Shown: positions 42,280 through 43,270 of the stretch, in pieces
Position numbering within the stretch: position 1 is the first letter of the stretch
Layout of the letters: each line of letters begins with the position of its first letter
DNA from: Oscarella lobularis
Taxonomy: Eukaryota
Reading direction: 5' to 3'
DNA: 45,521 nucleotides
Assembly: GCF_947507565.1 (NCBI RefSeq)
Contig: NC_089176.1
Span: 4,076,882 to 4,122,402 of the forward strand
Translations under genes and position numbers: made by a program
The notes under the pieces: model-generated
The model's input: only the letters and a program-made list of their open reading frames with translations
Database searches by the model: none
Told to the model about the DNA's origin: nothing

Positions 42280-43265
42280 ACGAGCACGCGCAGTGTTACT
42301 AGGTGATCACGCGCAACGGAGCCAAAGCGGAAAGAAGACGTCGACGAAGACGAAGAACGCAGCGCGCTAACACCTTTAGCAAGTGGGGCCCCGCTATGGG
42401 GCACTCGAATGGAGATGAGGCCCCTCGTTGGGATCTTCGCTGCTAAATGAAAAAACGAAGCCCTACGGCCTATTTCGCAGCATCGGCAACAAAGCTAAAG
42501 GTAAGAAAACGCCCAAAGTGACGCGACAAAGCAGAAACACCAACAGCGCGTTGCGAAAACAGAAAAAGCAAAGAAACGCCGTCGCTCTCCTCGCCTAAGT
42601 ACTCCGCGCGGTCAATAAACACCGCCGAAGCCTTCGTGCAACGCGAAAATCCCCTTTCGCACCCGAAAAACAACCCGTCTCGCAAGAACGCGAAGATCGC
42701 GCACGTGGATGAGGTCCCTCGTAGGGAATCGCTGACAAAGAAACGGTTTCTACGCCACGAAAACCAAATTCGCAACACGGAATTGAATGCATAATAACAG
42801 CGAAGCTTAGCGTGAGGCGCAGAAGCGCCAAAACGATGGAGAAGACGCGATTTTCTATTCAATGCCCTCGAAACGCCGCAGAAAGCTAAACCGCGCTCGC
42901 GCTTTCATTCGCTTCGATGTTTAACGCTTTCTTTTAGCAGCGATCGTCTTCGAACGCCTTCAAAACGCCGAAACACAGAGAAAACTATAGGAGAATCGCG
43001 CGAAATCAGCCGATATAGAAAACAATTAAGCGAACAGAACGTACAACAATCTACTCGTCCTTCTTCGTTAACTGTGTGCGAAAACAGAAAACCAAATTCG
43101 AAGCATAGAAAGTCGCAATTTTAGAAACCTATAATTTCCATATAAGTAATGAAGCACTCCCGAAAAGTGGGAGGGCCGCGGGTGCCTGTGGCAGTTGATC
43201 TCGCTCAACGTCACCACACCCCGCCCCGGGCGAGCGCCGCTCACACTGTGGGCGCATGCGCAAAC
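42280..43265 (+). promoter_or_regulatory. CpG-rich, T-depleted (on + strand) block immediately centromere-proximal to the subtelomeric satellites; contains GC box ccccgcccc and palindrome GCGCATGCGC (43252-43261); candidate subtelomeric CpG-island promoter
   Basis: Dense CG dinucleotides (cgcgaaa, acgccg motifs). Strong strand compositional skew. Terminates right at the start of the 10-bp satellite. Confidence 0.25.
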
Positions 43266-43270
43266 CACGC

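Follow-up and report, generated by a model that had tools for sequence, protein, structure and literature searches.

Background

Subtelomeric duplicons or core elements, exemplified by the subtelomeric blocks of human chromosomes and the X and Y' elements of yeast, and the bidirectional housekeeping promoters of animals, with their Sp1/KLF GC boxes, NRF1 sites and CREB/ATF sites, are two kinds of element with which a sequence at a chromosome end may be compared. A third comprises the human promoters of telomeric-repeat RNA (TERRA), which are CpG-rich, located ~1 kb from TTAGGG and dependent on NRF1 for activity, with predicted NRF1 sites in 30 of 41 human subtelomeres (PMC5087959). Human subtelomeric CpG-island promoters of the '61-29-37' repeat class are attributed to Nergadze et al. 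2009, as cited in PMC5087959 and PMC6600276. A full-text literature search found no paper on sponge telomere transcription, subtelomere structure or TERRA promoters.

The window analysed here is a stretch of 45,521 nucleotides from the sponge Oscarella lobularis (NCBI RefSeq assembly GCF_947507565.1, contig NC_089176.1, positions 4,076,882 to 4,122,402 of the forward strand). Next to its telomeric satellites and repeats lies a conserved non-coding subtelomeric block (42279..43270, + strand), a candidate subtelomeric, possibly bidirectional, promoter element. The reading to which we tentatively incline is that this ~1-kb block is a subtelomere 'core' element, most likely a promoter region with two faces.

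Like the human TERRA promoters, the block occupies the last subtelomeric kilobase before telomere-like repeats, is common to many but not all chromosome ends, is GC- and CpG-rich with a candidate NRF1-type site (a motif match), and is oriented such that rightward transcription would yield UUAGGG RNA. Unlike them, it shares no sequence homology with them, bears one NRF1-type site per copy, and resides in a genome that is not CpG-depleted and hence affords no 'island'; it also falls outside the human 61-29-37 class because it is single-copy sequence in which tandem repeats of 61, 29 and 37 bp are absent. At most, the block would work like a TERRA-type subtelomeric promoter. Its likeness to human duplicons and the yeast X and Y' elements consists in having been copied among ends in one orientation, with nested proximal boundaries, mosaic identity and structural variation between haplotypes, carrying gene fragments and pseudogenes along with it; it differs from them in sequence and organism, in a left end that is sharp and invariably turned toward a gene's 5′ end, and in a 10-bp satellite of its own on the distal flank. 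Like animal bidirectional housekeeping promoters, it packs ACGTCA, CCCCGCCCC and GCGCATGCGC into 55 bp and is flanked head-to-head by housekeeping genes, but this motif cluster is ~0.9 kb from the ATG of the neighbour rather than between close start sites, and there is no partner gene on the telomere side.

Architecture and composition of the chromosome end

A 10-bp satellite, (AGCTTAGCCC)x31 (43273..43580, + strand; Tandem repeat finder, 100% matches), begins 3 nt past the end of the block and contains no CpG. It is followed on the same strand by a degenerate TTAGGG tract that is the first telomere-like sequence past the block (43581..43643; 94% common with the end of contig ptg000094l), a unique piece of ~250 bp, terminal repeats of 141- and 91-bp units (451-bp family) with TTAGGG between the units (43906..45187), and terminal (TTAGGG)n (45188..45521; 55.7 perfect copies to the window end). 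The + strand is TTAGGG-reading, as the sequence-only reading had claimed. Across the block-bearing ends described below, the first TTAGGG-like tract lies ~60-310 bp beyond the block, and the terminal TTAGGG run is separated from it by ~0.3 kb to >14 kb, depending on the end. The segment 43442-43917, which comprises extra satellite units, the degenerate TTAGGG and the 250-bp unique piece, is haplotype-specific; the unique piece has an intron-like gtacgt...ttctttag and an (AG)11 run. The terminal 141/91-bp units, bounded by TTAGGG, resemble repeated terminal additions.

A compositionally distinct block of ~1 kb directly proximal to the satellites had been proposed from the sequence alone, and such a block does exist. 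The + strand of 42280-43270 consists of 31.7% A, 27.5% C, 23.9% G and 16.9% T (51.5% GC); it had been called almost devoid of T, which is wrong at 17%, but its A>T skew of +0.31 is nonetheless extreme, being reached by only one of 192 background windows (overlapping 1-kb windows at a 500-bp step, from ~100 kb of the same genome), and persists in all copies of the block that were found (+0.27 to +0.35). The claim of CpG richness stands insofar as the block has 103 CpG and a CpG observed/expected ratio of 1.58 (whole window, 1.12), but this is modest for the genome, where the background mean is 1.16 (standard deviation 0.32) and 21 of the 192 windows equal or exceed the block. GpC is enriched as well (observed/expected 1.44), so the signal is patchy clustering of C and G with no specific sparing of CpG. 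The CpG-rich zone (~41900-43060) begins within the neighbouring pseudogene and ends short of the distal module that contains the GC box, of which the CpG observed/expected ratio is 0.99. Among copies of the block, transitions at CpG (5.7%) are as frequent as at other C/G sites (6.0%; Fisher p = 0.79), a comparison that reveals no CpG hypermutability or decay. Because the genome is not CpG-depleted and the copies lack CpG hypermutability, the block is no vertebrate-type island, i.e. a CpG-rich unmethylated patch in a CpG-depleted, methylated genome, and the argument from CpG islands to a promoter was dropped.

Substitutions among copies of the block show no 3-nt (codon) periodicity and its orfs are disrupted differently from copy to copy, for which reasons a protein-coding block was rejected. 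The homologues of its 130-aa minus-strand orf are confined to other copies of the block, and the apparent third-position pattern of a short ATG..AAG|GT reading frame failed across copies. Searches of the block for Rfam families and tRNA gave zero matches. No tandem array was found inside the block, and internal repeats of 15-39 nt (such as 42414-42452 with 42708-42743) are too weak for it to be a decayed one. Scans of JGI metagenomes with the block and with the terminal repeat gave no match.

Copies of the block at other chromosome ends

Other ends were drawn from the ENA HiFi assembly ERZ18545485 by way of a 62-aa orf that lies in the terminal repeat and occurs on 14 contigs, as does the 451-bp repeat family, and were compared by BLASTN and MAFFT. 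Five of the seven chromosome ends examined in this assembly carry the block, always in one orientation, so the idea of a TERRA-type promoter, for which absence from other ends had been named as the refuting outcome, survives. Both the position of the block just proximal to telomeric repeats and its sharing by five of seven ends are properties of a TERRA-type promoter. The copies at the four further ends have 81-91% BLASTN identity to that of the window: 90.5% over 1047 bp in ptg000093l, 82% over 1504 bp in ptg000133l, 85% over 594 bp plus 71% over 272 bp in ptg000094l, and 81.7% over 1407 bp in ptg000155l, a contig that starts with CCCTAA repeats and was found via an orf of the block (the orf-based protein search yielded just two further contigs). 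A AGCTTAGCCC-type repeat of 6 to ~31 units directly follows every terminal copy, in degenerate form at ptg000133l. The two ends without the block are ptg000104l, which has 41/48-bp satellites instead, and ptg000262l, where a gene adjoins the 451-bp repeats. The satellites of the ptg000104l end (L011 1-9597) alternate between 41-bp and 48/49-bp units for at least 9.6 kb.

Contig ptg000153l has an interstitial partial copy of 0.7 kb (window 42279-42985), with genes on both sides and at least 30 kb between it and a contig end. The distal side of this fragment (L017 9300-9955) joins a long 17-18-bp satellite (GGACAATTTGTCCTGG-like), beyond which are genes including a Nucleoporin2-domain orf.

Occurrence at several ends, a single orientation, a variable proximal boundary and mosaic identity characterize subtelomeric duplicons, and the block has all four. 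The strongest rival explanation is a neutral subtelomeric duplicon, i.e. a terminal segment copied between ends by ectopic recombination or break-induced replication, in which the motifs are a relic of the promoter of a former gene and now do nothing at telomeres; it is possible, if somewhat doubtful. Nested copies differ in their proximal end points (~41834, 42008, 42279 and ~42300-42315), as would be expected of such a segment, identity along the block is mosaic and non-monotonic, and three ends bear differently decayed pieces of a pseudogene (see below). Haplotypes point in the same direction. The alternate haplotig of the ptg000133l end retains the distal 0.5 kb of the block alone. Exact-protein matches placed the window in the assembly, where its end is represented by ptg000371l, atg000654l and atg002525l, the last of which equals the window across the 12.4 kb compared; atg000654l differs from the window by one SNP within the block (43069 T>C), and this is its only difference over the terminal ~2.9 kb (40497-43441), compared with ~20 differences in the preceding 2.2 kb. 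Both ptg000371l and atg000654l are without 43442-43917, with ten 451-bp repeats and the satellite joined straight to TTAGGG. High identity between the window and ptg000094l does not stop at the block but runs on through the satellite and the degenerate TTAGGG (94%), which fits recent exchange between ends, not selection. Recent exchange between ends can account for much of the conservation of the block. The constancy of orientation and of the satellite junction at all five block-bearing ends is harder to reconcile with neutral copying, as are several properties of the distal module and of the block in ptg000093l.

The distal module and other motifs

The distal 130 bp of the block (43139..43270, + strand) form a module that is promoter-like in its motif content and conservation. 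Its motifs, all on the + strand, are a TATA-like box, CATATAAG (43139-46); an inverted repeat, CTCCCgaaaagtGGGAG (43157-73); CCGCGG, between this repeat and the next motif; GTTGAtctcgcTCAAC (43194-209), which overlaps an ACGTCA half-site (43208-13); a GC box, CCCCGCCCC (43219-43227); and a perfect NRF1-type palindrome, GCGCATGCGC (43252-43261), after which comes the satellite. The GC box and the perfect palindrome had been noted at the end of the block from the sequence alone, correctly.

The module (43141-43270) is the best conserved segment at four ends, with 92-98% identity (72-75% in ptg000133l) as compared with 55-94% for the remainder of the block, where the figures are 86-94% among four ends for 42315-42700 (63% in ptg000094l), 70-87% for 42701-43060 and 73-83% for 43061-43140. 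The most diverged copy, that of ptg000094l, falls to 63% and 59% in two interior segments yet has 94% identity in the module, which is not expected of a neutral duplicon. The ptg000133l copy bears on both sides: its module has decayed and its GC box is lost, the only such loss, in favour of neutrality; against it, the palindrome core GCGCATGC is retained there, as at all five block-bearing ends, and both of its small inverted repeats still pair by means of double changes, the count of which is not statistically significant.

The exact palindrome GCGCATGCGC occurs once per copy of the block and nowhere else in 175 kb of the genome, while with one mismatch allowed there are two matches in the window against 0.93 expected. 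With the exact palindrome confined to the block, nothing independent marks it as a promoter word of the species. The GC box CCCCGCCCC is enriched in the window, with four sites (25531, 38177, 38183 and 43219) against 0.04 expected; the site at 25531 is ~270 nt upstream of the start of a 326-aa minus-strand orf. Another palindrome, TGACGTCA, has 14 sites in the window, from 18724 to 40904, against 0.72 expected, some of them paired by segmental duplication; it may belong to a repeat or be a regulatory word in common use. A segmental duplication of ~6.3 kb in the window (26634-32959 and 34216-40580, 91-95% identical) carries paralogous 311/314-aa orfs and M20-peptidase-like exons.

The well-conserved interior sub-block (42315..42700, + strand) holds GGGGCCCC and a weakly repeated GATGAGGCCCCTCGTTGGGA motif. 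Within it is a donor-like AAAG|GTAAGA (42497..42506, + strand), its GT kept in all six copies, and farther right are a branch-like TTTAAC, a pyrimidine tract and an acceptor-like CTTTCTTTTAG|C (42920..42938, + strand); all six copies retain the pyrimidine tract and the AG (with TTTCAG in ptg000133l). As motifs, they hint at a spliced rightward RNA, nothing more.

Genes on the centromere-ward side

The block has a discrete left end, GACGAGCACGCGCAGT (42279..42294, + strand), at which homology starts exactly in ptg000094l and in the interstitial copy; in ptg000093l, homology starts ~20-35 nt inside it. The flanks joined to GACGAGCACGCGCAGT in ptg000094l, the interstitial copy and the window are mutually unrelated.

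The gene nearest to the left end in the window is a pseudogene of PSMB1 (proteasome beta-1; 41495..42265, − strand) that has kept its introns and was identified by tblastn with O. lobularis PSMB1. Its ATG (42265-42263) is 13 nt from the block, and its lesions comprise one lost codon, two exonic frameshifts (~42123 and ~41740), the removal of ~38 nt (41934-41880) and in-frame stops; the last exon has decayed. The closest named relative of the stitched translation is XP_065844656.1 of O. lobularis (67% identity), followed by a protein of Corticium candelabrum, which marks the genome as that of a homoscleromorph sponge. Two intact orfs of the window lack an NCBI cluster-mate at ≥90% identity. Copies of PSMB1 at two other ends are also disabled, each differently. 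As the PSMB1 sequence of the window is a pseudogene at the DNA level, the block is not needed as its promoter; the notion that the block is a mere PSMB1 promoter was rejected because the PSMB1 copies are defunct and homology starts at the same left end beside two flanks of unrelated sequence. Two PSMB1 proteins of O. lobularis, XP_065844656.1 and XP_065839369.1, are at least 90% identical and encoded on contigs of 2.17 and 2.74 Mb; the two genes may lie in a segment that was duplicated and is possibly subtelomeric.

Other copies of the block adjoin other genes. An intact-looking, multi-exon MFSD1-like gene at ptg000093l has its ATG only ~30-50 nt from the block, so its promoter must lie in the block, which is more than a neutral duplicon would provide. 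An intact MRPS12-like orf starts ~130-230 nt from the left end of the block, and VPS15 (MGNELSG...) starts 129 nt from that of the interstitial copy. In each of the four independent contexts, the neighbouring gene has its 5′ end toward the left end and reads away from the block. The last gene of a block-less end likewise reads away from the telomere, and all five genes (the PSMB1 pseudogene, MFSD1-like, MRPS12-like, BTB-NHL and VPS15) have their 5′ ends (window 42265, L012 4479, L007 7853/7952, L008 8365 and L017 10768) toward the block or telomere side, a consistency (p ~0.03 from orientation alone) treated as a lead only, as the spacers between genes in this genome may be short. With the 5′ ends of centromere-ward genes next to its proximal edge, the block would direct at least part of any promoter activity toward the centromere.

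The arrangement of these genes and the case of MFSD1 would also be explained if the block were the promoter or upstream region of the last centromere-ward gene alone, with no transcription toward the telomere. This is unlikely: four unrelated genes need no common upstream region of 1 kb, one of the neighbours (PSMB1) is a dead gene, and the best conserved part of the block is its far end, at a distance of ~0.9 kb from the neighbours. When read as the upstream region of these leftward genes, moreover, the block is strongly T>A (skew −0.37 to −0.42, as compared with ~+0.3 on the + strand). On the sense strands of 15 ordinary upstream regions the skew ranges from −0.23 to +0.19 and is mostly A>T, at +0.06 to +0.13, the opposite of what the block presents to the leftward genes; on the + strand its A>T runs in the direction seen in most of those regions, and beyond them, which gives a weak hint of a rightward sense. 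As an indicator of direction, strand skew was set aside as only weakly informative.

A non-autonomous mobile element that has its left terminus at 42279 and lands in or near gene 5′ regions, including those at chromosome ends, would account for the junction of GACGAGCACGCGCAGT with three unrelated flanks and for the interstitial location of one copy, and Penelope-like retroelements are active at the same ends. An element of this kind is nevertheless quite improbable: no terminal inverted repeats were reported for the block, no poly(A), target-site duplication or LTR was seen on reading its ends and junctions, it has no coding signal and does not resemble the Penelope-like elements of L008 and L020, its detected copies are few (six in the sequence examined, five at ends and one partial and interstitial), and its right end is undefined, the terminal copies all running into satellite. 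Helitron-type ends were rejected because the bases ahead of the common left end differ between copies, and a hammerhead ribozyme or Penelope terminal repeat because GATGAGG motifs misfit the CUGAUGA core, there is no Rfam match and the Penelope elements in L008 and L020 are unlike the block.

Candidate transcription toward the telomere

According to the preferred reading of the block as a promoter region with two faces, the core element would keep one orientation at many chromosome ends, with the last gene on one side and the CCCAGCTTAG satellite and TTAGGG-interspersed terminal repeats on the other. At its proximal edge it would overlap the promoter for transcription of the last gene toward the centromere, and the distal 130-bp module would be placed to start transcription by RNA polymerase II toward the chromosome end. 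The predicted product, (CCCAGCUUAG)n-UUAGGG RNA, would be a TERRA-type transcript. Promoter activity, its direction and any role at the telomere are inferences. In protein look-ups, the orfs of the block and of the terminal repeats matched genomic ENA contigs only, never transcriptome-derived sources. The observation made in the sequence-only reading is partly confirmed, and its interpretation as a TERRA-type promoter partly supported.

A more specific proposal is that the block is a portable subtelomeric promoter cassette: as a chromosome end is rebuilt beside a gene's 5′ end, the block would be captured with its satellite and telomere and would supply both a promoter for the last gene and a telomere-directed start driven by NRF1 and the GC box. 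Such a cassette is improbable; were it real, NRF1-linked telomere transcription would date to the base of the animals. If the distal module starts telomere-directed RNA, promoter-driven TERRA, possibly NRF1-linked as in humans, would extend to one of the earliest-branching lineages of animals and its promoter would be a compact, sequence-defined element. Regardless of any promoter role, the block is a clean marker for the rebuilding of sponge chromosome ends.

A structured non-coding RNA gene downstream of the TATA-like box, such as telomerase RNA or an snRNA-like gene, is very improbable: the box does stand ~25-30 nt ahead of a GC-rich, hairpin-forming 110 nt, and two double changes preserve pairs in the most diverged copy, but folding of the module is not significantly more stable than that of shuffles (z = −1.65 on the + strand and −1.05 on the − strand), the two double changes are within shuffle expectation (117/500), there is no Rfam match even at E<=10, the CTAACCCTA template is absent from the block, which disqualifies telomerase RNA in particular, and no T-run terminator precedes the satellite. 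As neither stability nor covariation was significant, structured RNA was rejected for the interior sub-block as well as for the distal module.

Other features of the chromosome ends

The translated orfs of the window, read by eye, include death domain, NB-ARC/NACHT-TPR-like, EGF-repeat and xylosyltransferase sequences and are presumably metazoan. The sponge ends combine common core blocks and a private 10-bp satellite with additions of retroelements and with terminal genes that point away from the telomere. The retroelements are Penelope-like (RVT_1, HTH_animal and GIY-YIG domains) and lie on the C-rich strand of chromosome ends (L014 8294-9676, L008 15085-18333 and L020 5408-8098, all on the − strand); the L014 copy is 5′-truncated and capped by telomere repeats.
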